A stretch of DNA of 64,000 nucleotides from Acidobacteriota bacterium (GTDB lineage: Bacteria > Acidobacteriota > Thermoanaerobaculia > UBA5066), in NCBI GenBank assembly GCA_008363385.1, contig RHKY01000034.1, forward strand, positions 14,903 to 78,902. Reading direction: 5' to 3'. Numbering within the stretch: position 1 is the stretch's first letter; each line of letters opens with the position of its first letter. The position numbers and the translations under genes are program-made. This document shows positions 17,801-37,100 of the stretch, one piece after another. Under the pieces are notes generated by a model, which worked only from the letters and a program-made list of their open reading frames with translations, was not told the origin of the DNA and searched no databases.

Positions 17801-18756
17801 GCCGTGAACGGCTCGAACCGTCCGTCGCGGAACCTGTGGACCCCGGCGCCGTCCGTCCCGACCCAGAGGCTCCCGTCGCGGTCGAGGAGGAGCGTCCGGA
17901 TCGAGAGGCTGGGCAGCCCCTCCGCGGGGCCGAAGGCGGTGACGCCGTCGTCGCGGACGCGGAAGAGGCCCGCGCCGTCGGTGCCGGCCCAGAGGCTCCC
18001 GTCCGCGTCGACGAGGGTCGGCCGGACGAGGAGAGCCGCCGGGCCGCTCCCGAGGCTACGCGCAACGAGCTTCCCGTCCTCCAGGACCTGCAGCCCGCCC
18101 CCGAAGGTCCCGATCCAGAGCCGCCCGCGCCCGTCCGCCGCCGCCGACCAGACGCGGTTCGACGCCAGTCCCTGCTTCTCCGAGAGCGTCGAGAGGCGGC
18201 CTCCGACGTACCGCCCGAGGCCGCCGCCCCCGGTGGCGATCCAGAGGTCCCCGCTGCGGTCCGCGCCGAGCGAGCGGATCCTCTCGCTCGGGAGCCCCTG
18301 CGCCCTCGTGAAGAGCTCGAACCTCCCGCCCCGCAGCCGGACGAGCCCCCCGCCGAACGTCCCGATCCAGAGGGACCCCGTCCGGTCCACGTGGAGCGCC
18401 ATGACGAAGTTGTTCCTCAGCTCCGGCGTCGTCTTCCGGTCGAAGACCGTGAACCGGACGCCGTCGAACCGGACGAGCCCCTCCTCGGTCCCGAGCCAGA
18501 GGTAGCCGTCGGGCGTCTGGGCGATCGCGTTGACGGTGTTCTGCGGCAGACCGTCGTCCTGCGTGAAGGAGTCGACGACGTACTGCGTCGTCCTCCGGCC
18601 CGGATCCAGGGCCCTCGCTCGCGGGGCGGCCAGGAGCGCCGCGAGGAGGGCCGCCGCGAGGAGTCCGGGGCTCCGGAGCCAGAACCGGCCGCGGCGCGGC
18701 ACGGCAGGACCGCCGCGCGCGGCTCGCGTGCCCGGGACACCCCCGCCTCTCACCAC
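14794..18756 (-). CDS. sensor Ser/Thr protein kinase with an N-terminal periplasmic two-component-regulator propeller (Reg_prop repeats plus Y_Y_Y), TM helix, coiled coil, zinc ribbon and C-terminal kinase domain
   Basis: About 1300 aa. A signal peptide is followed by about 14 repeats of the ...G(T/S)xxGLxRF/Y..G.F..F... type (Reg_prop) and then a Y_Y_Y-like segment (YRFRVVAANDDGVWN). Next come a TM helix (WWFLSLAAGLVLGAALAAHRL), a coiled coil, a zinc ribbon (CPSCGEVFDDGVTACP) and a Hanks kinase (GEGGMGTVFEA, VVKVV, HRDVKPANVF, DFG, GTPAYMSPE). The start may instead be the GTG near 18702. Confidence 0.75.
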   Translation of the reverse strand: MVRGGGVPGTRAARGGPAVPRRGRFWLRSPGLLAAALLAALLAAPRARALDPGRRTTQYVVDSFTQDDGLPQNTVNAIAQTPDGYLWLGTEEGLVRFDGVRFTVFDRKTTPELRNNFVMALHVDRTGSLWIGTFGGGLVRLRGGRFELFTRAQGLPSERIRSLGADRSGDLWIATGGGGLGRYVGGRLSTLSEKQGLASNRVWSAAADGRGRLWIGTFGGGLQVLEDGKLVARSLGSGPAALLVRPTLVDADGSLWAGTDGAGLFRVRDDGVTAFGPAEGLPSLSIRTLLLDRDGSLWVGTDGAGVHRFRDGRFEPFTARQGLANDFVVSLFEDREGSLWIGTSGGGLVRLRNGKFANVSTRDGLGNDVVRAVLEDRDGSLWAGTTGGGVTRFSGGKATTLTTAEGLASDQVFSLHEDSAGRVWIGTDGAGVNVLEKGRLRRLTTADGLVNDRVRAIVSDGEGAVWLGTVSGLSRWKDGRFTTFTPENGLPGSSIRALLAGRDGSLWIGSDGGGLGRLKDGEFRTWRAAHGLSSPRVFSLHEDERGTLWVGTSGGGLNRLSDGKLAAITSAHGLHDDVVFQVLEDGKGFLWMSSNHGVFRVARDELDAFADRRLPRVTSEAFGKADGMGSAECNAGSPAGIRTRDGRLLVATIKGITSIDPGRLPTNPLPPPVLVEELLVDGRTVPLGETVRIGPGTERIELRYTATSLAVPARVRFRHRLEGFDRSWVDAGTARSATYTNLRHGWYRFRVVAANDDGVWNETGAELSLSLAPFFYQTWWFLSLAAGLVLGAALAAHRLRIRRLKRRERELERVVDERAGELKKRSEELQRAQEQIEKLTTTTSGVLEDPAAWARSVAREMARAIGAREIGIWLIEDGVLVPLASTSLRVPDWKEMREALRDDGVLSRETGLVVPVLGMTGEPRGVVAVEGPGPSWGEVQRRVIASLARHLGTALDLRALRERLVTSEAARLAHREELHRKGVELAAVCPSCGEVFDDGVTACPSDGAPPDWSRFLPLRPDGRYRLLRWLGEGGMGTVFEARDERLDRLVVVKVVRPDRLRDAGALLRFEREARIVAQIRHPGVVAVFDTGELGDGSVFLVMEHLSGVSLADALATHGAGTPSQVARLARHAGGALEAAHRAGVVHRDVKPANVFLVPGDGGIQAKVLDFGVAKSLRVEGHLTQTGTIVGTPAYMSPEQVRGEAVDARSDLYSLAAVLHEALSGRRLVPEGDLARTFAVVLKAPPRPLAGTVAGIPTGVDALLGRALAKRPEDRPADVLSWAEELAALLDSVPAGEPSVPGWPEPVVVRRPRPRPQFEMR

Positions 18757-18805
18757 CGCGGCGGATCATAAGCACCGGGCGGCACGGCGGCCCTTCGGCC
18801 GGCTC

Positions 18806-19459
18806 CTACGGCCGGGCTCGCGTGCCGGGACCCCGGCGCGCCGGACCCGGGCGCGCCGGCCTCCGCCGGTGGCGGCGCGCCTTCTCCCGGTTCCCGCAGA
18901 CCGTCATGTCGCACCATCGGCGGGAGCCGTTCCGGCTCCGGTCGAGGAAGAGCCAGGCGCAGCCCTCCCCCTCGCACCACCTCACGCGCCCCGTCTCGCC
19001 GGACGTCAGGAGCTCGGCGGCCGAGACCAGGACCGGCCAGAGGACCCGGTCGAGCGCGGGCGGGTCCTCCTCGCGCCACGCCCACGCGACGCCGGCCCCG
19101 TTCCGGACGAGGCGGCGCGCGGAGAGCGCGGCGGCGAGGGCCTCGTCGAGGGCAGCGAGCGAGGGCTCGGGAAGGGCCCGGCCCTCGACGACGGCCGCAA
19201 AGAGGCGGAACAGCTCCTCGCGAAGGCCCCGCGCCCGCTGCAGCGCCCGGGAGGCGGCGCGGGGATCCCGCCCCGCCTCGCGCGTGAGGCGCCGCGCTGT
19301 CCGCTCGTCGATCGCCCCGGCCTGCAGCCCCCAGGCGACGAGGTCGGCGTACTCGTGCAGGTGCTCCTTCGGCTCGGCCCGCCGCCGCTCGCCGAGGGTG
19401 TTCGGGAGGTCGAGGCAGAGGCTCCCCCCGGTGATCTCGAACCCGGGCGGCGGCCTCAT
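18806..19459 (-). CDS. ABATE / CGNR zinc-finger domain protein
   Basis: 217 aa with a C-terminal RWCEGEGCAWLFLDRSRNGSRRWCDMTVCGNREKARRH, the CGNR zinc-finger motif. Confidence 0.7.
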   Translation of the reverse strand: MRPPPGFEITGGSLCLDLPNTLGERRRAEPKEHLHEYADLVAWGLQAGAIDERTARRLTREAGRDPRAASRALQRARGLREELFRLFAAVVEGRALPEPSLAALDEALAAALSARRLVRNGAGVAWAWREEDPPALDRVLWPVLVSAAELLTSGETGRVRWCEGEGCAWLFLDRSRNGSRRWCDMTVCGNREKARRHRRRPARPGPARRGPGTRARP

Positions 19460-20403
19460 CGGCTCGCAGCGCCGCGGGCCGCCACGAGGGCCCGGAGGTT
19501 CCGCCCGAGGACGTCCTCCATCTGCGGCTGCCCGAGCCGTCCCAGCTTGGCCCGGATCCCGGGCCAGGACGGGTCGTCACGGTCCTCCCGCCCGGAGAGG
19601 AGGCTCGCCGTCTCCTCGCGGGTGAAGACGACCCCCGAGGCCTCCACGGAGAGCTTCGGGTTCTCGGGGCAGCGGGTCTGGCAGAGGAGGCAGCCCACCA
19701 GCGCGTGGTGCGCCTTCGGCTCGACCCAGGCCGGCCACTCCCCCGCGACCTCGTTGGCGAACGTCAGGCAGCGGTCGGCGTGGATCAGGACGCGGTCGGC
19801 GGAGATGGCGTCCGTCGGGCAGCTCTTGAGGCAGGCCCGGCAGGTCCGGCAGCGCTCCAGGAGCGCCGGCTCGGACAGCCTCCACGCCGCCGGGTGGGGG
19901 AGCCGGGCGTCGGTCGCGTATCCCGCGAGCTGGAGCCAGCTCCCGGCGCCCTCGGCGTACGTCACGTTGTTCCGGCCGTAGGAGACGAGCCCGAGGCGCG
20001 AGGCGACCTGCTTCAGCGGCGCGTTCAGCGTCTCGACGCGGGCCCCCGCGAGCGGGCCCTCGGAGATCGCCGTCCGGAGCTCCTCGAACAGGTCCCGGTA
20101 CCGGACGTACGTCGGCGGGAAGAGCGCCTCGACCGTCCCCTCCTCGCGGTCGAAGAGGACGGTGTGCGCCGGCCTCGGGACGACGACGACGAAGACCGAG
20201 CGGAGGCCCCGCGCCGCCAGGACGTTCGCCGCGTCGGTGGCGAGCGACTCCGAGGCGTACGCCGCGAGCGCCCTCGAGAGGCCCCGTCCCCGGACGTCGT
20301 CCAGCGCGGCGTCGACGACCTCGAGCGGCCCCCAGCCGACCCGGAAGCCCCGTTCCCCGGCCCATCCCGAGAGGCTCTTGCCGAAGCTCGTTCTCGCGTC
20401 CAT
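19456..20403 (-). CDS. 4Fe-4S dicluster domain protein (epoxyqueuosine-reductase/QueG-like Fe-S protein)
   Basis: 315 aa with two ferredoxin-type cysteine motifs, CRTCRACLKSCP and CLLCQTRCPENP. Confidence 0.55.
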   Translation of the reverse strand: MDARTSFGKSLSGWAGERGFRVGWGPLEVVDAALDDVRGRGLSRALAAYASESLATDAANVLAARGLRSVFVVVVPRPAHTVLFDREEGTVEALFPPTYVRYRDLFEELRTAISEGPLAGARVETLNAPLKQVASRLGLVSYGRNNVTYAEGAGSWLQLAGYATDARLPHPAAWRLSEPALLERCRTCRACLKSCPTDAISADRVLIHADRCLTFANEVAGEWPAWVEPKAHHALVGCLLCQTRCPENPKLSVEASGVVFTREETASLLSGREDRDDPSWPGIRAKLGRLGQPQMEDVLGRNLRALVAARGAASR

Positions 20404-20431
20404 CCCGGCCTCCGCGCGTCCGTCCCGCCGC

Positions 20432-20463
20432 GCTAACCATCAAAAGCGTTTTTGATGGTTAGC
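20432..20463. promoter_or_regulatory. AT-rich near-perfect 32-bp palindrome (candidate operator) in a divergent promoter region
   Basis: gctaaccatcaaaaGCGTttttgatggttagc: two 14-nt arms are exact reverse complements around a 4-nt centre. It lies about 30 nt upstream of the start of 19456..20403 (-) and about 110 nt upstream of 20574 (+). It is conspicuously AT-rich against a 73 % GC background. Confidence 0.6.
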
Positions 20464-20573
20464 ACGAACATGGGCCCCGCCAGGCCACCTGTCAAGGCGG
20501 AGGCCGGGCGTCCGGGCGTCGATCCACGTCGCCCCCGGACGCCCATAATCGAGGGGCGCCGGAGGACCCGCCG

Positions 20574-21116
20574 ATGCAGCGCTTCGAAGCCGCTCCCTGG
20601 CCCACCTCGCTGAAGGTCGTCTCGCTGATCGGCGCCGCCCTCCTGGTCGCCGTCGGGATCGGGGCCGCCCGAGCGATCCCGCACGGGACGCGCGTCCCCT
20701 TCGCCGAGACGTTCGGGACGTTCGTCTCGTTCGTCCCTCCCGCGATCGCCCTCTTCGCCCTCCTCTTCGTCGTCCGGGCGTACGAGGTCTCGCCGGGCGA
20801 GCTCCGCGTCCAGCGCCTCCTCTGGTCCACCCGCCTCGACCTCGCCGGCCTGAGGCGTGCGTGGCACGACCCCGAGGCGATGTGCGGCTCGCTCCGGGTC
20901 TTCGGCAACGGCGGGCTCTTCTCCTTCACCGGCCTCTACCAGAACCGGGCCCTCGGGCGGTACCGGGCGTTCGTCACCGACCCGAAGAGGTCCGTCGTCC
21001 TCGTCCTCCCCGCGCGCACCCTCGTCCTCTCGCCCGCCGAGCCGCGCGCCTTCGTCGAGGGGCTCCACGCCTTCTTCCCGCGGATCGAGAGCGGCCCGGC
21101 CCCGGGCCACGGCTGA
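20574..21116 (+). CDS. hypothetical membrane protein (bacterial PH-like)
   Basis: 180 aa with an ATG start, two TM helices, then a compact soluble domain. The coding composition is good. Confidence 0.5.
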   Translation: MQRFEAAPWPTSLKVVSLIGAALLVAVGIGAARAIPHGTRVPFAETFGTFVSFVPPAIALFALLFVVRAYEVSPGELRVQRLLWSTRLDLAGLRRAWHDPEAMCGSLRVFGNGGLFSFTGLYQNRALGRYRAFVTDPKRSVVLVLPARTLVLSPAEPRAFVEGLHAFFPRIESGPAPGHG

Positions 21117-21151
21117 CGCACGCGACGCCCGGGGATCGCTAAGATCCGCGC

Positions 21152-21892
21152 GTGCACCCGAGCGAACCGGGCCCGGGCGAGCGGCTCCTCACCGGCCTCC
21201 TGGCCGCACTCGACCGGGCCGAGCGGCACGAGCGCCCCTTCGGCCACCTCCTCCTCGAGGACGTCGTCTCGCCCGAGATGCACGCCACGCTCCGCGAGAG
21301 GCTCCCCGCCCCCGAGACCTACGACCCCGACCGGCCGCAGAAGTACCGGCGCCCGGACGGCACCGTCGCCCGCTCGGTCCTGCCGCTCGACGACCACGGG
21401 ATCGCGCCCCTCCCCCCGGACCGGCGGGGCTTCTGGGCCGACGTGCGGCGCTCGCTCTCGTCGCCGGCCCTGAAGGCGCGCGTCTTCGGCCTCCTCGGGC
21501 GGGACCTCGGCCGCCGCTTCCGGGTGAGCCCTGACTCCCTCGCCGGGCTCGCCGCCCACCCGCGCGCGAGCCTCGTCCGCGACCTCCCGGGCTACTGGAT
21601 CGAGCCCCACCCCGACTCGCCGGCGAAGGTCGTCACGCTCCAGATCTACCTCCCCTCGCACGGGAGCCCGCGCCACCTCGGGACGTCCTTCTACCGGCTC
21701 CGCCCGTGGGGCTTCCTCCGGACGGGACGCCTCCTCGAGGAGTTCCGGCGCGTCCCGTTCGAGCCCGGCTGTGGCTACGCCTTCGCGGTCGGAACGAAGA
21801 GCTGGCACGGCGTCGAGCGGATCCCCGACGGCTCGGGCGTCCGCGACTCGCTCATGCTCGTCTGGTTCCGCGACCCCGCCCGGCGGCGCTGA
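21152..21892 (+). CDS. hypothetical protein, possible 2OG-Fe(II) oxygenase fold
   Basis: 246 aa. An HxD...H arrangement (EPHPDS ... SWHGVERIP) suggests a double-stranded beta-helix oxygenase. The start codon is uncertain. Confidence 0.4.
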   Translation: MHPSEPGPGERLLTGLLAALDRAERHERPFGHLLLEDVVSPEMHATLRERLPAPETYDPDRPQKYRRPDGTVARSVLPLDDHGIAPLPPDRRGFWADVRRSLSSPALKARVFGLLGRDLGRRFRVSPDSLAGLAAHPRASLVRDLPGYWIEPHPDSPAKVVTLQIYLPSHGSPRHLGTSFYRLRPWGFLRTGRLLEEFRRVPFEPGCGYAFAVGTKSWHGVERIPDGSGVRDSLMLVWFRDPARRR

Positions 21893-21941
21893 GTCACGCC
21901 CTTCCCGTCGGCCCCTGGCCCGGGAGACCGGGCCGCCGTCG

Positions 21942-22481
21942 CTACATCGTGATGAAGTGGCCCGAGAAGCTCCCGCCGACCGGCGTCCGGAGGCAGACCC
22001 CGCGACGGGCGTCGTTTCCGGCCGCGTAGGCCGGCAGCCCGCTCTCCGCCGTCTCGTTGAGCCCGTACCAGGGATCCAGGCAGACGATCTGCCCGCCCCG
22101 CGTCCGCCGGGCGCAGACGATGAAGTGCCCGCCGCCGCTGGGCCAGGCGACCCGGGCGATGAACGGGAACCGCGCGGCGGCGAAGTGCGCCGCGACCGCG
22201 GTCGAATAGCTGGCGGTCGCCTGGATGTTCGCCTTCTGCAGCGCCGCCGCCAGCGCCGTGTAGGCCGCCGTCCCGTTGGCCTCCGTGTAGCCGTTCGGCA
22301 AGAGCGCCATCAGCTGGCGGACGCGCTCCTCGCCGCCGACGAGGCACATCTGCGCCCGCATGGTCTCGATCATGTAGACGCAGGCCGGCCCGCACGACTG
22401 GCTCCGCTCCTGGAGCCAGACGATGTGGCTCGTCCCGTCGCTGTCGTTCCCGATGTCGTACCCCATCGCCGCCACCTCCAT
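21942..22481 (-). CDS. papain-like cysteine peptidase, C39-like domain protein
   Basis: 179 aa with QERSQSCGPACVYMI (the Q...CGxAC catalytic Cys motif of peptidase C39-like domains) and a downstream His (GGGHFIVC). Confidence 0.6.
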   Translation of the reverse strand: MEVAAMGYDIGNDSDGTSHIVWLQERSQSCGPACVYMIETMRAQMCLVGGEERVRQLMALLPNGYTEANGTAAYTALAAALQKANIQATASYSTAVAAHFAAARFPFIARVAWPSGGGHFIVCARRTRGGQIVCLDPWYGLNETAESGLPAYAAGNDARRGVCLRTPVGGSFSGHFITM

Positions 22482-22584
22482 CCTTCGCCCCGTTCGGAGC
22501 GGGCCGGACGCCGAGTCGGGCTGGACGAGAGGGATCGTATCGCGGCCGGGGCGCTGCGGATCGGCCGGACGCCGCGGGTGGACG

Positions 22585-25500
22585 TCAGGCGGTCGCGGCC
22601 GGGACGAGGCGGGGGTGGAGCGCTGCCGGGATCGGCGTGTCGAGCCTCCAGACGATGCTCACCGGCCGCTCCCCCTCGTGCGACTCGTACCGCGCCCGTC
22701 CCAGGAACGTGAACGCCACGGCGCGCCCCTCCGCGTCCTTGGACCGCTCGCGGACGAAGAGCCAGAAGCTCCAGCCGCTCCCGTCCTCGCCCGTGTATCG
22801 GCGCAAGGTCGGTGAGCCGCTCCGGACGGTGCTCTGCGTCTGCCAGTGGAAGCGGCCCGGCCCGAGCGCGTAGTCGTGGTAGCGCGTGGAGGGACGGAAG
22901 AGGCGCGCCTCCTTCTCGACCGTCACGAAGAGGAGCTCGGCGGCCTGGTCCGGCATCCGGAAGACCCCCTCGCGGCTGGGCGCCTTCCGCTCGAGCGTCG
23001 ACGCCCCGACAGCGGCCAGGACCTCGTCCCGCTGGTACGACCGGTGGAGCGAGAGGGCCCACCCGGGCGGCAGGCTGGCACCGGGGCTGACGCTGGGGGT
23101 CCGCTCCAGGAGCAGCTCCGCCAGCTCGGCCAGCTCCCCTCCGGCGGGCGAGTACGCAAGGCGGGCCACGAGGCCGTGCGGCGTCCGGGGCGCCCCGTCC
23201 GGGAAGAGCCTCCGCGCCAGCATCACCAGCCGCCGGCCGTCCGCCGTCGTCAGCGCCTCGATCTCGGCCGGCCCGAGGTTCGGGATCCGTTTCCAGAGCG
23301 AGAGCCGCTCGGGCTCGTCGACGTGGAGGAGGCCGCCCAGCCGGCGCGCGAGCTCCTCGTCCCCGGACTCCGGACCGATCAGGCCTGCCGCCCGGCGAAT
23401 CGCCGTCCAGCTTCCGAGGGACGAGGCGTAGACGTCGTCGAGCTCGCGCCCGGTCTCGTCCAGGAACCGGGCGAGCGTCACGTCTCCCCCGCCGCCGGCC
23501 ATCTCGCGCGCTTCGCGGACGAGCGTCTCCTTCTTCCGGTCGAGCGCCTGCCTCAGGTGCGCGAGCACCTGCTCGCGGACGATCCGGTCCAGCTGGAGGC
23601 TGCATCCGGCCGGGAGGAGGGGGAAGCCCCGATCGACCTCCTCGCGGAGCGTCCCTCTCTGCATCCCCGTCAGCGCCCGCAGGACCGCCTCGAAGCGGAA
23701 CTCCCTCCGGTGCTGCCCCACGAAGTCGAGGACCAGCGCGGCCGTCTTCCCCTCCGACAGGCGCAGCCCGCGCCCCAGCTGCTGCTGGAAGAGGAGGACG
23801 CTGTCCGTCGGGCGGAGGAGGAGGATCGTGTCCACCTCCGGGATGTCGACCCCTTCGTTGTAGAGGTCGCACGTGAAGACGACCGAGACCTCGCCGTCGC
23901 GCAGCCTCCGGGGGGCCTGCTCGCGCTCCTCGTCGGAGGAGCCGCCGTGGACCGCGAGGGCCGGCACCCCCCACTCGGTGAACCTCCGCGCCATGAACCT
24001 CGCGTGCTCGACGCCGACGCAGAAGCCGAGCGCGCGGACTCTCATCGGGTCGCCCGCCTTCTCGCAGAGCTGCTTCAGGACCAGGGCCGCCCGCGCGTCG
24101 TTCCCCGTGTAGACGTTCTCGAGGCCCGCGTCGACGTACCGCCCACGCCGCCACTCGACCGCCGTCAGGTCCGTCCCGTCGCTGATCCCGAAGTAGTCGA
24201 AGGGCGCCACCAGCTGCCGGTCGATCGCGTCCCAGAGGCGGATCTCGGCGCTCGGGTGGCCGCCGAACCGGGAGAGGACGTCCTGCATGTCCGTCCGCTC
24301 GGGCGTGGCGGTGAGCCCGAGGAGGACCCCCGGGTCCAGCACGTCGAGGAGCCTCCGGTACGTCGGGGCCGCCGCGTGGTGGAACTCGTCGACGACGACC
24401 ACGTCCCAGTGAGTCCTGCCGAGGCGGGTGGCCAGGTCCTGCCGGTCGAGGCTCTGGATCGTCGCGAAGAGGTGGTCGTGCGCCTCCGGGGTCCGGCCGC
24501 CCCCCATCCGCTCGCCGAACGACGCGTCGCGGAGCACGGTCCGGTAGGCCTGGAGCGCCTGGTCGAGGATCTCCTCCCGGTGGGCGACGAAGAGGAGGCG
24601 CGGCGCGAGGCCCTTCTCCTGCCGGAGGCGGCGGTAGTCGAACGCCGCCACCATCGTCTTGCCGGTCCCCGTCGCCGCCACGACGAGGTGGCGCGACTTC
24701 CCGAGGAGGCGCCGTTCGGCGTCGAGCCGGTCCAAGATCTCCTGCTGGAACGGGTACGGCCTCACGTCCGGGAAGAAGGCGGTCCCGCGGACGGACACCG
24801 GGACGCCGCGTGCCTGGGCGAGGGCCCCTTCGAGCCTCGCCGCCGTCTCCGGGTCGCGCGGGTCGATCGCCTCGAACTCCGGGTCGTCCCAGAGCGAGTC
24901 GAAGGCCGCTCGGAAGCGCTCGACCACGGCCGGGCTCTCCCGTTCCGAGGCTTTCAGCGTCCACTCGAGCCCCTCGCCCAGCGCCGGGGCCGAGAGGTTC
25001 GCCGACCCGACGTAGACCGTCGAGAGGCCGTTCGACCGCCGGAAGAGCCACGCCTTGGCGTGCAGGCGCGTCCGGCGCCCGTCGTACGAGACCCGGACCT
25101 CCGCCCCCTCCATCGCCGCGATCTCGAGGAGCGCTCTCGCCTCCGTCGCGCCGGTGTACGTCGTGGCGAGGAGCCGGAAGCGGCCCTTCCGCCGAAGGAG
25201 GCTCTCGACAGGCTCCCGGACTCGCTGCCACCCCCGCCACGTCACGAAGCTGACGAGAGCGTCCACCTCGTCGGCGCTTTCCATCTCGGCGGCGAGCTCG
25301 GCCCCCAGCCGGGGCTCGTCGCGCCCCGCGGTCAGGAGGACGCTCCGGTCGAGCGGCGTCACCGGGCGGCGCGTCGGCGCCGCCCCGGCCCGGATTCCCC
25401 GGAGGACCCGCAGCGGCGGGACGACCGTCTCCTCGCCGCCGTCCTCGAAGCCCCTCTCGCGGAGCCAGTCGAGCGCCTCGTTCGCGAGGCGGACGACGCG

Positions 25501-25713
25501 GTCCTCCCCGGCCGCGTCCTCGTCCTCTGCAGGCTCCTGCCGCGCCAGCGTCCTCGAGATGGCACGAGAGAGATGGCGGACGAGCCGCTCCTGGGCCTCC
25601 TCGGCACCGGGACCGTCGTCGACGTCGGGAAGCAGACCGGTGGCCGAGGCCTCGGAGACCAGCCGCTCGAGGGCCCGCGTCAGCAGGTCGTCGTAGATCC
25701 CGGGGCGCGGCAT
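22585..25713 (-). CDS. PLD-family nuclease + SF2 (DExH) helicase + DUF3427-like C-terminal domain protein; restriction/defence-like
   Basis: 1042 aa. The N-terminal PLD/NgoFVII-like HKD motif is RLHAKAWLF...VYVGSANLS. Helicase motifs are VAATGTGKT (Walker A), VVVVDEFHHAAA (DExH), GLTATPER and the motif VI region QQLGRGLR. The C-terminal about 250 aa are conserved-looking (HDYALGPGRFHWQTQ). Confidence 0.8.
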   Translation of the reverse strand: MPRPGIYDDLLTRALERLVSEASATGLLPDVDDGPGAEEAQERLVRHLSRAISRTLARQEPAEDEDAAGEDRVVRLANEALDWLRERGFEDGGEETVVPPLRVLRGIRAGAAPTRRPVTPLDRSVLLTAGRDEPRLGAELAAEMESADEVDALVSFVTWRGWQRVREPVESLLRRKGRFRLLATTYTGATEARALLEIAAMEGAEVRVSYDGRRTRLHAKAWLFRRSNGLSTVYVGSANLSAPALGEGLEWTLKASERESPAVVERFRAAFDSLWDDPEFEAIDPRDPETAARLEGALAQARGVPVSVRGTAFFPDVRPYPFQQEILDRLDAERRLLGKSRHLVVAATGTGKTMVAAFDYRRLRQEKGLAPRLLFVAHREEILDQALQAYRTVLRDASFGERMGGGRTPEAHDHLFATIQSLDRQDLATRLGRTHWDVVVVDEFHHAAAPTYRRLLDVLDPGVLLGLTATPERTDMQDVLSRFGGHPSAEIRLWDAIDRQLVAPFDYFGISDGTDLTAVEWRRGRYVDAGLENVYTGNDARAALVLKQLCEKAGDPMRVRALGFCVGVEHARFMARRFTEWGVPALAVHGGSSDEEREQAPRRLRDGEVSVVFTCDLYNEGVDIPEVDTILLLRPTDSVLLFQQQLGRGLRLSEGKTAALVLDFVGQHRREFRFEAVLRALTGMQRGTLREEVDRGFPLLPAGCSLQLDRIVREQVLAHLRQALDRKKETLVREAREMAGGGGDVTLARFLDETGRELDDVYASSLGSWTAIRRAAGLIGPESGDEELARRLGGLLHVDEPERLSLWKRIPNLGPAEIEALTTADGRRLVMLARRLFPDGAPRTPHGLVARLAYSPAGGELAELAELLLERTPSVSPGASLPPGWALSLHRSYQRDEVLAAVGASTLERKAPSREGVFRMPDQAAELLFVTVEKEARLFRPSTRYHDYALGPGRFHWQTQSTVRSGSPTLRRYTGEDGSGWSFWLFVRERSKDAEGRAVAFTFLGRARYESHEGERPVSIVWRLDTPIPAALHPRLVPAATA

Positions 25714-25766
25714 TCGCGAAGACTACCCCGCGCGTCGTCCGGCCGGGCGCGCCCGGCGGCGCCGGG

Positions 25767-26171
25767 TCAGGATCGCTTCGCGGGGACTGCCGCCTCGACG
25801 TCGGTCCGTCCGAAGTCGTCGCCCTTGAAGAGGAGCGGCTCGCCGAGCGCCTGGGCGAGCGCGTAGGCGAAGCAGGCCCCGAAGTTCAGCCCGGCCGCGT
25901 GGCGCCCCTTTCCGTACCGGCTGAAGGCACGCCTCGCGATCCGGAGCTGCTCGACGTCGACGGGAGCGACTTCGACGTCCGCCGTCTCGAGGAGGTGATC
26001 GAGGTCGCTCGCCCCCTCCGGCCCGAAGCGGGACTCGACGAAGATCGCGGTCTCGAGAAGCGTCGCCGCCGAGACCGTCCGGCTCTCCGCCGACTCGATG
26101 GCTTCGGTGAACGCACGGCGCTCCGGCTCGTCGAGGAGGATCGCGATCAGCGCCGACGTGTCGATGACCAT
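25767..26171 (-). CDS. vapC: PIN-domain toxin VapC
   Basis: 134 aa starting MVIDTSALIAILLDEP, with acidic residues at PIN positions. Confidence 0.8.
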   Translation of the reverse strand: MVIDTSALIAILLDEPERRAFTEAIESAESRTVSAATLLETAIFVESRFGPEGASDLDHLLETADVEVAPVDVEQLRIARRAFSRYGKGRHAAGLNFGACFAYALAQALGEPLLFKGDDFGRTDVEAAVPAKRS

Positions 26172-26425
26172 CAGCGCGGGAGTCCCCGCTCGTCGTACCC
26201 GAGGATCTCCTCGGGACTCCGCCCGTCCCGGACGGGGAGCCGGGAGCAGTGCCGCGCGATCGCGTCCAGCTCGTCGGCGAGACGGTGTCCTCGCCGCTCT
26301 CGGCGAAGACGGGCGAGGCGGTCTCGAAGGGCCCGGGTCACCGCCTCGGTCTTCGTCTCCCCGGCCAGCCGCGCGACGGCCTCTGCCAGCTTCTCCGCCT
26401 CGGGGTTCCGGATGTTCAGGGCCAC
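26171..26425 (-). CDS. vapB: VapB-type antitoxin (FitA/Rv0623-like RHH)
   Basis: 84 aa starting MALNIRNPEAEKLAEAVARLAGETKTEAVTRALRDRLARL. Its stop overlaps the vapC start. Confidence 0.75.
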   Translation of the reverse strand: MALNIRNPEAEKLAEAVARLAGETKTEAVTRALRDRLARLRRERRGHRLADELDAIARHCSRLPVRDGRSPEEILGYDERGLPR

Positions 26426-26596
26426 GGGATCACCTCTCCCGTGCCGGATTCTACACGTATCGCTCGAATGCTACACGAGTGGATCAGAGCGTGACCGGGC
26501 CGGATCCTCCGCGCAGCGATGAAGCCGACGCCCCGTCGCCGGCGAACCGGGCGACGAGGGCCATGGGCACGTCCTCGGGTCACCCTGCCCGCACCG

Positions 26597-26977
26597 TCAG
26601 AGCCCCAGCTCCGACTTGACGCGCTCCCAGGGGATCGTCCCCTTGCGCCTCGCCTCCCGCAGGGCGGCACGGGCAGCCCGCCTGTCCGCAGCGTCGTCCA
26701 GGCGGCGCAGCCGCTCGAGGTCCTCGATGGGGACGACGGCGGCGACCGTCCTCCTGCCGTGCCGCAAAACCACTCGTTCGCCGCGGCTCGCCCGGACGAG
26801 GGCCCGGCGGAGCCGGTCCGCTGACGCTTCCGTGTCGCGAGGCGCTCGTCGCTCTCCGGGACTCGTCTTCCGGCAGGCGGACGACGTGAGGCTGGTTCCC
26901 ACAGCCCGGCGCGGTGCCTTCGCGGCGACCGTCGGCCGGTCGGCCCCGGCGCCGTCAGTCCCCGAACGGGACCGCAT
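26597..26977 (-). CDS. Phd/YefM-family antitoxin-like protein (start uncertain, likely shorter)
   Basis: The C-terminal about 80 aa (ADRLRRALVRASRGERVVLRHGRRTVAAVVPIEDLERLRRL...) match Phd/YefM. No cognate toxin gene is adjacent. Confidence 0.5.
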   Translation of the reverse strand: MRSRSGTDGAGADRPTVAAKAPRRAVGTSLTSSACRKTSPGERRAPRDTEASADRLRRALVRASRGERVVLRHGRRTVAAVVPIEDLERLRRLDDAADRRAARAALREARRKGTIPWERVKSELGL

Positions 26978-27253
26978 ACGTCACGTATTCCCGCGGGCAC
27001 GCCTCGCCCGGCCAGGTGAGGCTCATCGTCGTCCATCGCGCCGGATACACATTGTCGAGCACCCGCAGCGTCGCCTCGTCCTCTTCGGCGACGGGCCCGA
27101 GAAGCCCGTCCTCCGACGGGTCGACCTCCACGGCCTCCAGATGCAGCGGGCACCCGTTCAGCCAGAGGACCGTCCTCAGCTGGCGTCGATCACCTCGGAC
27201 GTCGGTCCATCGCTCTGGCGGGATGCACACGTCGGTCGCGCACGATGCCTGCG

Positions 27254-27637
27254 TCACGCGTCGCCTCCGTCCCCGCTCTCTCGAACACCGCCGCTCGAGG
27301 GGGATGCAGCGCGGAGCCTCGCCGCGTCCGGGCCGAACCCCACGATCCGCGTGCGGACCCACACCCCCTTCTCGACCTCGCCCTCGGCTTCGGCCGGGCG
27401 ATGGTCCTCGCAGTCCCAGCTCCGGAACCGGAAGCGGCTAGGAAGTCGGCTGGCATCGGCCTCCAACGGTGACATTGTGTCGACGTCATCCGCCCCTATT
27501 CCGATGGCTCGCGCCTGGCCCTGCTTCCACACCAGGAGGAGGCGCGGGCCATCCTTCCCCTGCCAGACCGACAGCGGGGCGCCGCAGGCCGGGCATGAGA
27601 GGGGTGGCTCCGGCCGGTACCAATCGAACATCCCCAT
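27254..27637 (-). CDS. hypothetical zinc-ribbon protein (possibly the 5' part of a frameshifted gene)
   Basis: A GAGGAG ribosome-binding site lies 6 nt upstream of the ATG. The protein starts MGMFDWYRPEPPLSCPACGAPLSVWQGK. The overlapping track ORF 26955..27362 has a protein-like C-terminus in another frame. Confidence 0.45.
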   Translation of the reverse strand: MGMFDWYRPEPPLSCPACGAPLSVWQGKDGPRLLLVWKQGQARAIGIGADDVDTMSPLEADASRLPSRFRFRSWDCEDHRPAEAEGEVEKGVWVRTRIVGFGPDAARLRAASPSSGGVRESGDGGDA

Positions 27638-27647
27638 CAGGGTCTCC

Positions 27648-28346
27648 TCACGGCCCCCTCTGGTTTCCCTCGTCCCGACCGTTTCCGCCGCCGGGCTCCG
27701 CCTGGGAACGCCGCTGGCGATCCCGCGCGTGGACGACTTCGGTGCAGACGCCGACCAGGCGGGTGACCCGCTCGGGGCTCGGCCGCCGGGCTACGCCTTC
27801 CAACCGGCGATCTGCGAACCGGCCCGCGATCAGGAAGCCTCTCCTGTTCGAGGTGACAGTCCGCGGATCCACGGACCCATCCGGGCTGACGGCGAACCGC
27901 CAGCCTTCCCCTTCGACGAGCAGGACGAACGGGAGCCCGTCGACGGTGCCCACGATCTCGTGTGGATCGCTCGCCGCACCGACTTCGAAACGAACGTCCG
28001 CGCCCGTGAAGTCGCTCGCGCTCGGCTGCCCCGCATCCTCGCCTGCCTGGCCTTCGGTCTCCCGGTTTGCCGCCTCGCGCCTCGAGAGCCTTCTCAGCCT
28101 GATCCTGACGATGCTGCTCCAGAGCTCCTCGAGGTCGCGATCGGGGGTCCCCCCTTCCACCTCCAGGCTGACCACCAGCGCGACCAGAAGGTGCTCCTGC
28201 TCCTCGGCGGGAAGAGCCCGTGCAGCCTCCAGAAACCGCCGCGCCTCGGCGTCCGACTGCGGCGCGCCGGCCAGCGCCTCCGTCCCGGCGGCACGTTCGG
28301 GGTCTCCTGTGGCTCCGTCGGGGGGACATCCCTGTGGCGAGGTCAT
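27648..28346 (-). CDS. hypothetical protein
   Basis: 232 aa with balanced composition (EEQEHLLVALVVSLEVEGG..., FEVGAASDPHEIVGTVDGLPFVLLVEGEGWRFAVSPDG). It ends 10 nt before the next gene's start. Confidence 0.5.
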   Translation of the reverse strand: MTSPQGCPPDGATGDPERAAGTEALAGAPQSDAEARRFLEAARALPAEEQEHLLVALVVSLEVEGGTPDRDLEELWSSIVRIRLRRLSRREAANRETEGQAGEDAGQPSASDFTGADVRFEVGAASDPHEIVGTVDGLPFVLLVEGEGWRFAVSPDGSVDPRTVTSNRRGFLIAGRFADRRLEGVARRPSPERVTRLVGVCTEVVHARDRQRRSQAEPGGGNGRDEGNQRGP

Positions 28347-28504
28347 CGATCGCTCCGGCTAGCTTCTTCTCGCGCTCCCTGCCGCCCGGTCACGACTCAA
28401 GAACGGCCTCCACCGGAGATGATACTGATAGTCCGGGTGCGTATCAACCGTATGCCGATAGACCGTCGCCGCATGAGCGGCAGCCCGGATAGGGTTCCTC
28501 GGCA

Positions 28505-28738
28505 GTGAAGCGCCATCCCGACCTGGTGGCCCTGGGTATCAGATTGCGCGAGCTGCGCGCAGCCCGCGGCTGGTCGCAAGAGGGTTTCGCACATCACTGC
28601 GGCCTCGATCGGACCTACTACGGCGGCATCGAGAGAGGCGAGCGCAACGTAGCGGTCGTCAACCTCCTGCGCATCGCCCGCTCGCTCGACGTGGAGGTTG
28701 GGGAGCTGTTCCGCCCGCCTGAATCCCGCGCGCGCTGA
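28505..28738 (+). CDS. XRE-family helix-turn-helix transcriptional regulator
   Basis: 77 aa, GTG start: LRELRAARGWSQEGFAHHCGLDRTYYGGIERGERNVAVVNLLRIARSLDVEVGELF is a canonical Cro/C1 HTH. Confidence 0.8.
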   Translation: MKRHPDLVALGIRLRELRAARGWSQEGFAHHCGLDRTYYGGIERGERNVAVVNLLRIARSLDVEVGELFRPPESRAR

Positions 28739-33595: not shown

Positions 33596-34099
33596 CTACC
33601 TCGCGGCCGCGAGGGCCTTGTCGTAGTCCGGGTGGTGGGTCACCTCGGGGACGATCTCGGCGTGCTTGACGACGCCGTCCTTGCCGACGACGAAGATCGC
33701 CCGGGCCAGGAGGCGGAGCTCCTTGATGAGGACGCCGTAGGCGGTGCCGAACGAGGCGTCGCGGTGGTCGCTCAGGGTGAGCGCCTTCTCGATGCCGGCG
33801 ACCGAGCAGAACCGCTTGTTCGCGAACGGCAGGTCCATGCTGACGTTCAGGACGGCGACGTCGTCGCCGATCCTGGCCGCCTCGTCGTTGAACCGGCGCA
33901 GCTGCGCGTCGCAGATCGGGGTGTCGAGCGACGGCGTGACGCTGATGACGAGCGTCTTGCCCGCGAAGTCCGCGAGCGTCTTGGCGCCGAGGCCGTTGTC
34001 GAGGACCGTGAAGTCGGGGGCCCGGTCGCCGGCCTCGACCTCCGGGCCGACGAGCGTCAGCGGGCCGCCGAGGTACGTGATGACGCCGGTTCTCTCCAT
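33596..34099 (-). CDS. tpx: thiol peroxidase (atypical 2-Cys peroxiredoxin)
   Basis: C-terminal 167 aa of track ORF 33596..38722: MERTGVITYLGG...TLVISVTPSLDTPICDAQ...FCSVAGIEKAL match the Tpx peroxidatic and resolving Cys context. Confidence 0.85.
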   Translation of the reverse strand: MERTGVITYLGGPLTLVGPEVEAGDRAPDFTVLDNGLGAKTLADFAGKTLVISVTPSLDTPICDAQLRRFNDEAARIGDDVAVLNVSMDLPFANKRFCSVAGIEKALTLSDHRDASFGTAYGVLIKELRLLARAIFVVGKDGVVKHAEIVPEVTHHPDYDKALAAAR

Positions 34100-34110
34100 G
34101 GGCTCTCCTT

Positions 34111-37100
34111 TCATCCTTGCGCGGGCTTCGCGAGCTCCTCCTTCAGGAGCATCGCGCCGCCCTTGGTGAGGTCGTCCCGGGTCAGCTCTCCCTTGGCGAG
34201 GCGGGCGAGGAGCGCGCGCTGCGCCCGGTACTCCCTGTTCTCGACGCCGGCCTTCCCCTGCAGGAGCCGCCAGGCCTTCCGCCGCTCCACGCAGAGGAGG
34301 ACCATCTGCCGCGAGAGGGCGTAGTAGCCCGGCTGCCCGTCGCCGTCCTCGGCCTTGACGAAGACCCCGAAGTCCGGGACGAAGACGGGGCTCTTCGGGT
34401 CGAAGACCCTCCGCTTGACGACGTCGTCCTGGGTGAGGAGGACGAGGACGTCCTCCAGCGCGATCATCCCCGACGCCTTCTCCGGCGTCGTCCTCCGCAC
34501 GTGCTGGCGGAACCGCGCCTCGGTGACGGCGTAGTGGGCGACCGTGTACCGGACCTTCTCGCCCGTCGACTTCAGGGTCGTCTCCCACCAGTCCTTGTCG
34601 AACGCGGGGTTCCCCTTGACCTCGATCGCCTCGCGGTAGGTCTCGCCCTTGCCCGGGTTGTACGTGAACTCCGGGATCATCCGGCAGTCCCGGGCCCGCT
34701 GCGACTGGAGCGTGGAGACGTCGTCGCCGACGCCGTGCTCGGGCTGGCAGGGGGTGAAGCTCTGGACGAACGCGGTCCCGCGGTACTCCAGGGCGTCGAG
34801 GAGCGCCTTGTAGAGCTTCGGCGCGTTGGCCATCGAGACCTGGGCCACGAAGGGAGAGCCGTGCCCGGCGCAGAAGATCTCGGCGAGGCCCTTCTTCTCG
34901 GTCAGCTTGCCCTGCGTGGCGGCACCGATCTGGTTCATGTCGAAGCCGCCGGTGATGACCGAGGAGTCGGAGTTCTGACCGCCGGTGTTCGAGTAGACCT
35001 GCGTGTCGAGCATCAGAGACTTCACGTTCGGCCGGTTCTGAAGGACCACCTTCGAGACGTTCTGGAAGCCGATGTCGCCCATCCCGCCGTCGCCGCCGAT
35101 CGCCCAGGCCTTCGGCAGCTCGGCCACCTCGAGGTCGGTCATCAGCGCGTCGGTCAGGTGGGCCAGGTCGAAGTACTCCGCCGCCGTCAGGACCTCCCCG
35201 TCCCGGTCGAGGAGGGCGTCGGCCAGCCTCTCGGGGATGACGGAGCGGCGGGCGTGGTCCATCAGGAACGCCTCCCCGAAGAGCCAGGCGACGGTGACGC
35301 CGTCCTGGAAGAGGGAGTTCATCCAGGGGTAGGGGTGCGGGTTGTTCGGGGGCGTCGAGCCGAAGACGGTGTTGCAGCCGGTGTGCGCCCCCATCGCCAT
35401 CACCGACATCCCGTTCGCCAGCCGGCCGTCGATCGCCTGCAGGCCGCGGTGGTTGAAGGCCTCCTGCCGGAGGACCGCCCGCAGCGCGCCGACGACCTCC
35501 TCGTCGGGGATCGGCCCGCGGGCGGCGATCCGGGAGTCGGTGTCCTCGTCGCTCTCCCCGCCGAGGCCCATCAGGAAGTGAGCGACGGCCCGGACGAAGC
35601 GGGCGTGCCCCTCGGGGCTCCGCGCCTTCAGGGCCGTCAGGCGGCCGACGCCCTCCCCGTCCAGCCGCGCGGCCTTGGCCGCGAGCCGCTCGGCCTTCGC
35701 GTGGAAGATCGGCCGCATGTACGCCTCGGTCACCGAGGCGACCGCGCGCAGGACGGTCTTCTCGCCGCACCCGGCGCACGCGCCGTCGCCCGCGACGAGG
35801 GCGTCGTAGCTCGAGCGGACCATCAGGTGGTTCCTCAGCGCGGCCTCGCGCGAGGACTGGGGCTTCTCCGGGTCGTAGAGGCCGAGGTACTTCCTCGGCG
35901 TGTCGGAGAGGAGGTTGAGGAAGCCCATCGCCGTGGCGTGCCTGGCGTTCAGCTCCTCGGTCTCCTCCACCATCTTCAGCGCCTGGTGGTCGCCGCACTC
36001 GGTGACGCACTCGCCGCACCCCTTGCAGAGGTCCGAGACGAAGATCGAGAAGACGCCGCCCGCGCCCGGGGACTTCCGCTCCAGGTTCGCGAAGATCGCG
36101 TTGACCTTGGCGTAGGCGAGCGGGAGCGTGTCGACGATGGCGCAGAGCTGCTGCTTGCTCTCCGCGGAGACGACGCCGATCGGCTCGACAGCGGCGCGGA
36201 CGAGGTCGCGGACGGGGGTGGCGGCCTTCGCCTGCTGCGCGGCCACCATCCCGGCGCGGACCGACCGTTCGACGTCCGGGAGGCTCGCGAGGAGGCGCGC
36301 GCGGTCCATCGGGTCCGTGACGTAGCCGCGGACGGCGGTCGTCAGGACGGTCATCAGGTCCTGCGCGGTGTTCGGCAGGGCCGTGTCGGGGCAGGACGAG
36401 ATGCACTCCATGCACTGGGTGCAGTTCTCGGCGACGAAGACAGGGGTCATCCGGCGCGCGACGTACTTCGTCGCGACGTCGCCCGTCGCCGCCGCCGCGA
36501 CGCCCGCCGCGGCGAGGACCGAGGCCGGCTGGTGGTAGCCGAGGCCGGCGCGGAACTCCCGGTCGAACGTCTCGCGGCGGAAGACGGGGGCCCGCTCCCC
36601 CTGGGCCGCGGGCTTCGGGATGCCCAGGCACGTCGTGCCGCACTCGGCGAGCGGCGCGATCGAGGTCCCGCGCATGCTCGACGTGTCGGGGGCGTCGACG
36701 TCCCCGTAGGCGATCTCCCGCACGCGCGAGAAGCCCTGGAGCATCACCTGCATGTTCGAGGCGACGACGGCCTCGCCGAACCGGCCGAACTTCTTCCGGT
36801 ACTGCTTCTCGACCTGCTCGTCGAAGCGCTCCCGGTCGATCCCGAACTCCGTCAGGAAGGGCGAGACCGCGAAGAAGGCGCCGAGGAAGGCGTTCCCCTG
36901 CATCCGCAGCTGCAGGTCCGGCCGGTCGGTGGCGTTCCGGGCGATCTCGAAGCCGGGGAGGATGTAGCAGCGGATCTTCTTCTCCAGGATCGTGAGGCGG
37001 TGCTTCCGCGGGATTCGCGACCACGCCGTCTCGGGGCTCTCGCTCGACTCCCAGACGAAGGCGCCCCCCTCGGCCATCCCGTCGAGCGGGTTCGTGTGCG

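Follow-up and report, generated by a model that had tools for sequence, protein, structure and literature searches.

The window, a stretch of 64,000 nucleotides from an Acidobacteriota genome, contains a small variable hotspot of defence and toxin-antitoxin genes, and this hotspot holds a known single-gene system. It is best described as a mosaic, a reading to which a probability of about 85% can be assigned: a predicted SauUSI-family enzyme occupies a replaceable slot, an independent orphan C39-like peptidase gene lies next to it, and an ordinary vapBC pair is located in the conserved flank. All five open reading frames (ORFs) proposed for the block were confirmed on the minus strand, together with their coordinates. 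The description of the block as "defence-island-like" is a fair label, since the nuclease gene is found within a variable region that is rich in toxin-antitoxin genes. The host DNA has a GC content of 74%, and no tRNA gene was found within the window.

About 21.1 to 28.7 kb of the window: extent of the hotspot, chromosomal, Acidobacteriota bacterium.

The largest gene of the block encodes a protein of 1042 aa, for which the following features can be given.

22585..25713, minus strand: predicted SauUSI-family Type IV (modification-dependent, ATP-dependent) restriction endonuclease, 1042 aa (PADLOC, PDB, Pfam).
24874..25299, minus strand: PLD-family nuclease domain, aa ~139-280, with H218, K220, N239 and E250, aligned to SauUSI residues 43-190.
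23698..24762, minus strand: SF2 helicase-like ATPase, aa ~318-672 (Pfam ResIII and Helicase_C).
22612..23055, minus strand: DUF3427 target-recognition domain, aa 887-1034 (Pfam PF11907, 71.9 bits, cut-off 27.7).

Judged by its sequence, this protein belongs to the SauUSI family, a well-known group of Type IV restriction enzymes that depend on DNA modification and cut methylated foreign DNA, and it is an ordinary member of full length. When the region was checked with PADLOC, the protein matched the mREase_IV model PDLC03659 with 771.4 bits, its residues 109-1032 covering profile positions 9-935 of 945, so that all domains are collinear with the family model in one polypeptide. The crystal structure of SauUSI (PDB 7clg) was matched with an E value of 2.1e-70. 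Pfam searches returned ResIII (115.8 bits), Helicase_C (47.8), DUF3427 and PLDc_2 (27.6, just over the cut-off of 27). The NCBI entry KAA0252964.1 is named simply a DUF3427 domain-containing protein. At least 7992 homologues were found at E<=1e-50, and the family is therefore a common one. The profile matches bear out the combination of nuclease, helicase and DUF3427 domains that had been read from the sequence, as well as the class of enzyme directed against foreign DNA. The original prediction, which called this architecture typical of restriction-like enzymes, was right about the class and understated the case, as the architecture is that of the already described single-polypeptide SauUSI Type IV family.

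The catalytic residues of the nuclease domain can be followed one by one. In the alignment, H218-x-K220, G236-S-x-N239 and E250 correspond to the SauUSI residues H119, K121, N139 and E150, whose catalytic roles were established by mutagenesis (PMC3141236), and H218, K220, N239 and E250 are invariant in an alignment of 27 homologues. At the Asp position of the canonical H-x-K-x4-D motif, Arg is found here and Glu in SauUSI itself, and for this reason the motif is regarded as a nuclease-type HxK variant and not as an inactivated one. All four catalytic residues known from SauUSI are present. The ATPase motifs I (ATGTGKT), II (DEFH), III (TAT) and VI (QQLGRGLR) align with those of SauUSI and are likewise invariant in the 27 homologues. 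Among the genes called from 18.8 to 33.5 kb, none has a methyltransferase domain, and an enzyme of the SauUSI family would not need one.

By homology to SauUSI, a mechanism can be proposed. The C-terminal DUF3427 domain, which serves as the recognition domain of SauUSI and has an SRA fold (PMC6765204, PMC7913695), would recognise incoming DNA by a modified base, with 5-methyl- or 5-hydroxymethyl-cytosine as the most likely candidates. This recognition would activate the SF2 ATPase and set it translocating on the DNA. Cleavage would fall to a single HxK active site, made up by a dimer of two N-terminal PLD domains.

Beside the nuclease gene lies the gene of a small peptidase.

21942..22466, minus strand: stand-alone C39-like cysteine peptidase, 174 aa, with Q24, C30, H119 and D136.
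22467..22543, minus strand: upstream region of the peptidase gene, 77 bp, kept with either cassette (alignment of the window with loci L056 and L057).

The residue numbers refer to the 179-aa ORF 21942..22481; homologues and gene callers start at Met6, and the gene is therefore placed at 21942..22466 with a product of 174 aa. The protein is a genuine stand-alone C39-like cysteine peptidase. As had been predicted, its gene is on the same strand as the nuclease gene and downstream of it; the ORF matches Pfam Peptidase_C39 (PF03412) with 24.6 bits against a cut-off of 22, its Q/C/H/D catalytic residues are intact, and the fold model is confident. The product consists of the peptidase domain alone, its N-terminus is hydrophilic, and the gene is under purifying selection (dN/dS 0.10-0.23). 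About 600 representative clusters, spread over at least six phyla, match the family, which is a small, phylogenetically scattered group of uncharacterised stand-alone cytoplasmic cysteine peptidases of ~175 aa. A search of the PDB with the peptidase sequence directly gave no match, and the family profile gave marginal matches only, the best being Cpe1 (9l5u) and StbD-CT (8ssm) with E about 1e-3. These properties would also suit a self-contained intracellular protease with Gly-Gly specificity, carried here as separate cargo, perhaps as a latent toxin or an effector of abortive infection, and acting independently of the SauUSI-like enzyme; such a role is distinctly unlikely. PADLOC gave no match for the peptidase. 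The literature was searched for anti-phage systems with a C39 peptidase, and nothing relevant came up.

The mosaic character of the hotspot is best seen when related loci are compared. Two slots have been exchanged.

22544..25695, unstranded: replaceable cassette; L057 has 2320 bp instead (blastn against the window and border alignments).
21118..22591: second variable slot, holding both orf246 and the peptidase gene; L065 has a 486-aa TPR gene instead.
21152..21892, plus strand: orf246, a hypothetical 246-aa gene convergent with the peptidase gene, GC3 0.97.

In the sister strain L057, the first slot holds a gene on the other strand for a 649-aa PDC-S41 / Schlafen-group-3-helicase protein (PADLOC PDC-S41, 402 bits). 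The exchange spans the SauUSI-type coding sequence from about codon 7 to 41 bp beyond the stop codon. The peptidase of this strain is 98% identical to that of the window and has the same 77 bp upstream, in which the gene's own promoter is presumably located. As the upstream gene is divergent in L057, read-through from it into the peptidase gene is impossible there. At the cassette borders, no repeats were found beyond an imperfect 25-nt inverted repeat (80% complementary) that brackets the coding sequence. It was considered as a border repeat and set aside as a probable chance occurrence, since only one of its two arms falls within the replaced segment. The second slot is exchanged in L065, where an 83%-identical syntenic orthologue of the nuclease is found in the order vapB-vapC-SauUSI, followed by the TPR gene, with no peptidase. 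Two further orthologues (73-74% identity, L066 and L067) are without the peptidase as well. Profile searches with orf246 returned no family match. It was also considered as a partner or immunity gene and was rejected, as no homologue of it occurs near any other member of the peptidase family.

The original prediction had proposed the C39 peptidase as a partner of the helicase-nuclease. In such a two-gene defence system, the peptidase would, for instance, activate or degrade the SauUSI-like enzyme or be a second effector. The two genes are on one strand and only 118 bp apart, both have native-like codon usage (GC3 0.96-0.98), and the pair occurs together in most contigs of the strain population. 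Against this, the adjacency is not conserved beyond the lineage. Among 55 loci of peptidase homologues from representative genomes, none had a SauUSI-like, VapB or VapC homologue within 8 kb, and neither tblastn nor hmmsearch detected the peptidase family in any of 80 metagenomic SauUSI-like loci, 66 of which had at least 700 bp of downstream sequence. The co-occurrence of the C39-like gene with DUF3427 helicases, which the prediction would have implied, was thus 0/55 and 0/80, and the three orthologous loci described above lack the peptidase too. The separation can be seen from both sides, since a syntenic SauUSI orthologue exists without the peptidase and the sister strain has kept the peptidase while the nuclease is gone. 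Moreover, SauUSI itself acts as a single polypeptide (PMC3141236, PMC7913695), and PADLOC has no match for the peptidase. A two-gene system is therefore extremely improbable, and the proposed partnership was abandoned on these counts and on the swap in L057. Lineage-specific functional coupling is formally possible.

The neighbourhoods of the peptidase homologues tell the same story. No neighbour gene of the 55 peptidase loci recurs from one lineage to another, and the neighbours are housekeeping genes. In an all-against-all clustering of the surrounding ORFs, shared neighbours were found only within closely related genomes, namely inositol-1-phosphate synthase and a ClpX-like ATPase in Pyrinomonadaceae and AcrB in Syntrophobacteraceae. 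In the latter, an upstream gene of ~1050 aa, whose length had raised the suspicion of a helicase, is actually an AcrB efflux pump. The peptidase is an independent orphan with its own upstream region, and its adjacency to the nuclease gene is lineage-specific, due to chance and not functional. Neither a promoter in the region covered nor a terminator between the nuclease and peptidase genes was revealed by consensus scans, which are uninformative at 74% GC. With a gap of 118 bp and a shared strand, the two genes could be co-transcribed in this strain.

On the other side of the nuclease gene, the flank contains toxin-antitoxin genes.

25767..26171, minus strand: VapC (PIN-domain toxin), 134 aa, Pfam PIN 74.6 bits.
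26171..26425, minus strand: VapB-type antitoxin (Rv0623-like), 84 aa, Pfam PSK_trans_fac 103.2 bits.
26597..26977, minus strand: possible short orphan Phd/YefM-like antitoxin, Pfam 21.6 bits, cut-off 29.8.

The predicted vapBC pair is confirmed by these PIN and PSK_trans_fac scores and by an overlap of 1 nt between the two genes, the toxin being directly downstream of the antitoxin; the VapB_antitoxin profile gave 21.6 bits. The pair belongs to the conserved flank and is an unremarkable toxin-antitoxin system of type II. The claim of a Phd/YefM antitoxin did not hold up, given a score below the cut-off, the lack of an adjoining cognate toxin gene and the lack of a relative in the PDB. Neither beside this ORF nor between it and vapB was a toxin gene found, and NCBIfam gave no support. 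A coding signature is seen only in the last ~70 codons (GC3 0.90, vs 0.79 in the N-terminal part), and of the contigs covering the ORF, a single one has it annotated by gene callers. The corresponding slot in L065 holds a pair formed by a PIN gene and a 91-aa gene.

The nuclease brings a high-GC Acidobacteriota genome into the well-described SauUSI Type IV family, and little changes with it, the gene being already annotated as a defence gene by current tools. The useful outcome is negative and practical: there is no need to keep the idea of a defence pair made up of nuclease and peptidase. The orphan C39-like family might merit a separate look, and no evidence from this locus connects it with defence. 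The locus is also a clean natural example of a sharp-bordered defence slot, occupied by a SauUSI-type enzyme in one strain and by a PDC-S41 gene in another.

Among known systems, the closest to the nuclease is SauUSI. The order of PLD nuclease, SF2 ATPase, coupler and DUF3427 in one polypeptide is the same (PMC3141236, PMC7913695), the catalytic H, K, N and E and the ATPase motifs I, II, III and VI are kept, and no methyltransferase adjoins the gene. The 1042-aa protein differs from SauUSI in having about 90 more residues, most of them N-terminal, and the recognition domains align weakly (8.8 bits), so the specificity may differ from the S5mCNGS of SauUSI. The host here is a 74%-GC Acidobacteriota bacterium; for ScoA3I, which is also a high-GC SauUSI homologue, modification-dependent activity was absent in vitro (PMC6765204).

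The peptidase can be compared with two groups of proteins. The C39 domains of PCAT1, ComA and LahT are double-glycine leader peptidases, and the likeness of domain raises the idea that the window protein also processes the leader of a ribosomal peptide or bacteriocin. In contrast to them, it is stand-alone and cytoplasmic, no ABC transporter is fused or adjacent to it, no precursor peptide gene is nearby, and it has an extra conserved C-terminal beta-hairpin that carries a GGxLSGH motif. An ABC transporter, a precursor peptide or a modification enzyme was found beside the peptidase neither in the window nor in any of the 55 loci, and none of the top 150 family representatives has a transporter fusion, all of which makes a leader protease highly improbable. 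Cpe1 and StbD-CT are topoisomerase-cleaving toxins. These interbacterial cysteine peptidases (9l5u, 8ssm) share the core W..G..GH(F/W)VV...DP(W/Y)xG with the peptidase family, which would fit a toxin-like protein that the variable region carries as separate cargo. Unlike them, the C39-like peptidase has no PAAR, Rhs, VgrG or CdiA delivery domain, no immunity gene adjoins it (the following gene converges on it, and its neighbours are not conserved), and the genomic contexts of its family are housekeeping ones; a toxin-like role is unlikely.

For the hotspot itself, the known system to compare is PDC-S41, a Schlafen-group-3 / DUF2075-type helicase defence candidate. It is a protein unrelated to the window nuclease, is encoded on the opposite strand and is absent from the window. 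It takes exactly the same chromosomal slot in the sister strain and is thus the alternative cargo of the hotspot.

The five open reading frames (ORFs) of the original prediction are all present and lie on the minus strand, within 21942–26977. The source is an Acidobacteriota metagenome-assembled genome, and the encoded proteins have identical NCBI entries under the locus-tag prefix EDX89_ (e.g., KAA0252964.1). GC content around the locus is 73–77%, and codon-position GC supports four of the five ORFs as genes: GC3 reaches 0.96 in the 1042-aa ORF and 0.98 in that of the peptidase, and lies at 0.86–0.91 in vapBC. In the Phd-like ORF, a coding appearance is limited to the last ~70 codons (GC3 of 0.90 vs. 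0.79 in the N-terminal part). The peptidase gene is delimited as 174 aa because its homologues and the gene callers begin at Met6.

21152–21892, plus strand: orf246, a convergent hypothetical gene (246 aa)
21942–22466, minus strand: C39-like peptidase
22585–25713, minus strand: 1042-aa SauUSI-like protein
25767–26171, minus strand: VapC
26171–26425, minus strand: VapB
26597–26977, minus strand: Phd-like ORF

The original observation was largely correct, and its sole novel claim, that the peptidase is a partner of the nuclease, is wrong. The stand-alone C39-like peptidase gene itself is confirmed. Its product passes the Pfam C39 threshold (24.6 vs. 22 bits), residues Q24, C30, H119, and D136 are invariant in a 27-member alignment, and the AlphaFold2 model is confident (pLDDT 84.6, pTM 0.84). 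The N-terminus is hydrophilic and therefore lacks a signal peptide, and comparisons with a 72%-identical homologue and with a sister strain gave dN/dS values of 0.23 and 0.10, respectively. For these reasons, the protein can be considered a real, cytoplasmic cysteine peptidase that is probably active.

An exhaustive profile search with the peptidase family returned 608 representative clusters at E ≤ 1e-3. The top 150 representatives are nearly all stand-alone proteins of 165–200 aa, with no ABC-transporter fusion among them; a leader-peptidase function is very improbable. When the family profile was compared with solved structures, the top sequence matches were Cpe1 (9l5u) and StbD/CdiA-CT (8ssm), both at E ~1e-3, which gives a lead towards a toxin-like role. 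Such a role is nevertheless unlikely, since these scores are not separable from those of transporter-type C39 domains, the family has neither a delivery domain nor a conserved immunity gene, and most of its members are surrounded by housekeeping genes. As a separate observation, in four more distant relatives (P0222, P0236, P0273, and P0317; 270–370 aa) the C39-like domain is preceded by a helical N-terminal domain and a linker rich in proline, which recalls the layout of secreted polymorphic effectors.

Judged by sequence comparison, the peptidase is not a partner of the nuclease, and four independent tests agree. First, a one-genome-per-species scan yielded 55 loci encoding peptidase relatives, spanning Alpha-, Beta-, and Gammaproteobacteria, Acidobacteriota, Syntrophobacteraceae, Myxococcota, Planctomycetota, and Gemmatimonadota; by tblastn, none of them has a homologue of VapB, VapC, or the SauUSI-like protein within 8 kb. 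Neighbour clustering revealed no gene common to different lineages, and the called neighbours are housekeeping genes (RF-1 and a muramidase; DUF2125 and an integrase; Fe-S assembly and GSDH; AcrB; inositol-1-phosphate synthase and a ClpX-like ATPase). Second, metagenomes scanned by means of the SauUSI alignment gave 80 loci, 66 of which include at least 700 bp downstream, and the peptidase was detected at none of the 80, whether by tblastn with each of the 27 family members or by hmmsearch with the profile of the family. Third, the closest orthologue from another species (L065, 83% identity) keeps the order of an HTH gene, three small genes, vapB, vapC, and SauUSI, with a bPH_5 gene beyond, and has a 486-aa TPR gene in place of the peptidase and orf246; the peptidase is also absent from the 73–74% orthologues (L066 and L067).

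Fourth, the sister strain L057 keeps the peptidase without the nuclease. The window and L057 share 97% identity over 18490–22543 and 25696–27756, and the L057 peptidase is 98% identical to that of the window and identical to that of nuclease-carrying sister strains (e.g., L056). Window positions 22544–25695 are swapped in L057 (4311–6630) for 2320 bp with an oppositely oriented 649-aa gene, which scores 402 bits on PDC-S41, a defence candidate in PADLOC, and 172 bits on Pfam SLFN-g3_helicase. L057 still carries the initial 18 nt of the SauUSI CDS, and the 77-bp stretch upstream of its peptidase gene is conserved. Because its upstream neighbour is divergent, the L057 peptidase gene is not co-transcribable with it. 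The peptidase is thus an unlinked orphan.

The exchange has sharp borders and represents a population-level swap of a SauUSI-type gene and a PDC-S41/Schlafen-group-3-helicase gene in one slot. An imperfect 25-nt inverted repeat around the SauUSI CDS (22562–22586/25721–25745, 80% complementary) lies off these borders and is probably due to chance in 74%-GC DNA.

The term “defence-island-like” is a fair description of the region, since vapBC is confirmed (PIN 74.6 bits, PSK_trans_fac 103.2 bits, 1-nt overlap), at least four slots are exchangeable between the window and L056/L057 or L065, and an rve transposase lies at the far end of the region in sister strains. The general interpretation, a restriction-like enzyme in a variable region rich in toxin–antitoxin genes, holds. 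The proposed Phd-type antitoxin is at best a possible one, as it scores 21.6 bits, under the threshold of 29.8, and has no toxin alongside; a PIN and 91-aa pair occupies its slot in L065.

Exchangeable slots of the region
Slot 1, 22544–25695: SauUSI or PDC-S41 (comparison with L057)
Slot 2, 21118–22591 vs. L065 6717–8304: peptidase and orf246, or TPR gene
Slot 3: Phd-like ORF or PIN pair (comparison with L065)
Slot 4: 232-aa gene or Unstab_antitox pair (comparison with L056/L057)

Other observations concern the surroundings. Three tightly packed minus-strand ORFs (232, 127, and 100 aa) gave no match in Pfam, NCBIfam, or PADLOC, and an XRE-type HTH gene (28505–28738; PADLOC “Control_protein”, 85 bits) runs divergently from them. 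The arrangement is kept in L065, an Unstab_antitox and 89-aa pair replaces the 232-aa gene in L056/L057, and 26955–28738 may be an undescribed small module. Between 28800 and 31000, GC drops to 0.67–0.69 and the ORFs are weakly coding (GC3 0.72–0.77); sister-strain homology ends at 27756, with the rve-family transposase beyond, and the low-GC stretch resembles decaying or foreign DNA on the margin of the hotspot. A 1708-aa ORF (33596–38722, minus strand) joins N-terminal domains of pyruvate:ferredoxin-oxidoreductase (POR_N, PFOR_II) to a Redoxin/AhpC domain at the C-terminus; it is an unusual fusion unless the ORF is over-extended.

The predicted combination of PLD nuclease, helicase, and DUF3427 in a restriction-like enzyme is borne out by Pfam (ResIII 115.8 bits, Helicase_C 47.8, DUF3427 71.9, and PLDc_2 27.6 against a cut-off of 27). 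PADLOC PDLC03659, the profile of Type IV methyl-directed restriction enzymes, aligns at 771 bits (residues 109–1032 on profile positions 9–935 of 945), and the top solved relative is the crystal structure of SauUSI from Staphylococcus aureus (7CLG, E 2.1e-70). SauUSI requires H119, K121, N139, and E150 for cleavage, as demonstrated by mutagenesis (PMC3141236). Their counterparts in the 7CLG alignment, H218, K220, N239, and E250, are invariant across 27 homologues (47–84% identity), as are the ATPase motifs (Walker A ATGTGKT, DExH as DEFH, TAT, and motif VI QQLGRGLR). The Asp of the textbook HxKx4D motif is replaced by Arg in this protein and by Glu in SauUSI. The site is of the nuclease HxK type rather than broken.

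By homology, the 1042-aa protein would be expected to act like SauUSI (PMC7913695; bioRxiv 10.1101/2025.10.16.682607): the DUF3427/SRA-like domain would sense modified cytosine, which would switch on ATP-driven translocation, and the DNA would be cut at the one HxK site of a PLD dimer. None of the neighbouring genes codes for a methyltransferase. At E ≤ 1e-50 the very large SauUSI-like family comprises at least 7992 database clusters, and the nuclease adds a new member to this known, already annotated single-gene system. Its recognition domain resembles that of SauUSI only weakly (8.8 bits), and its specificity may differ.
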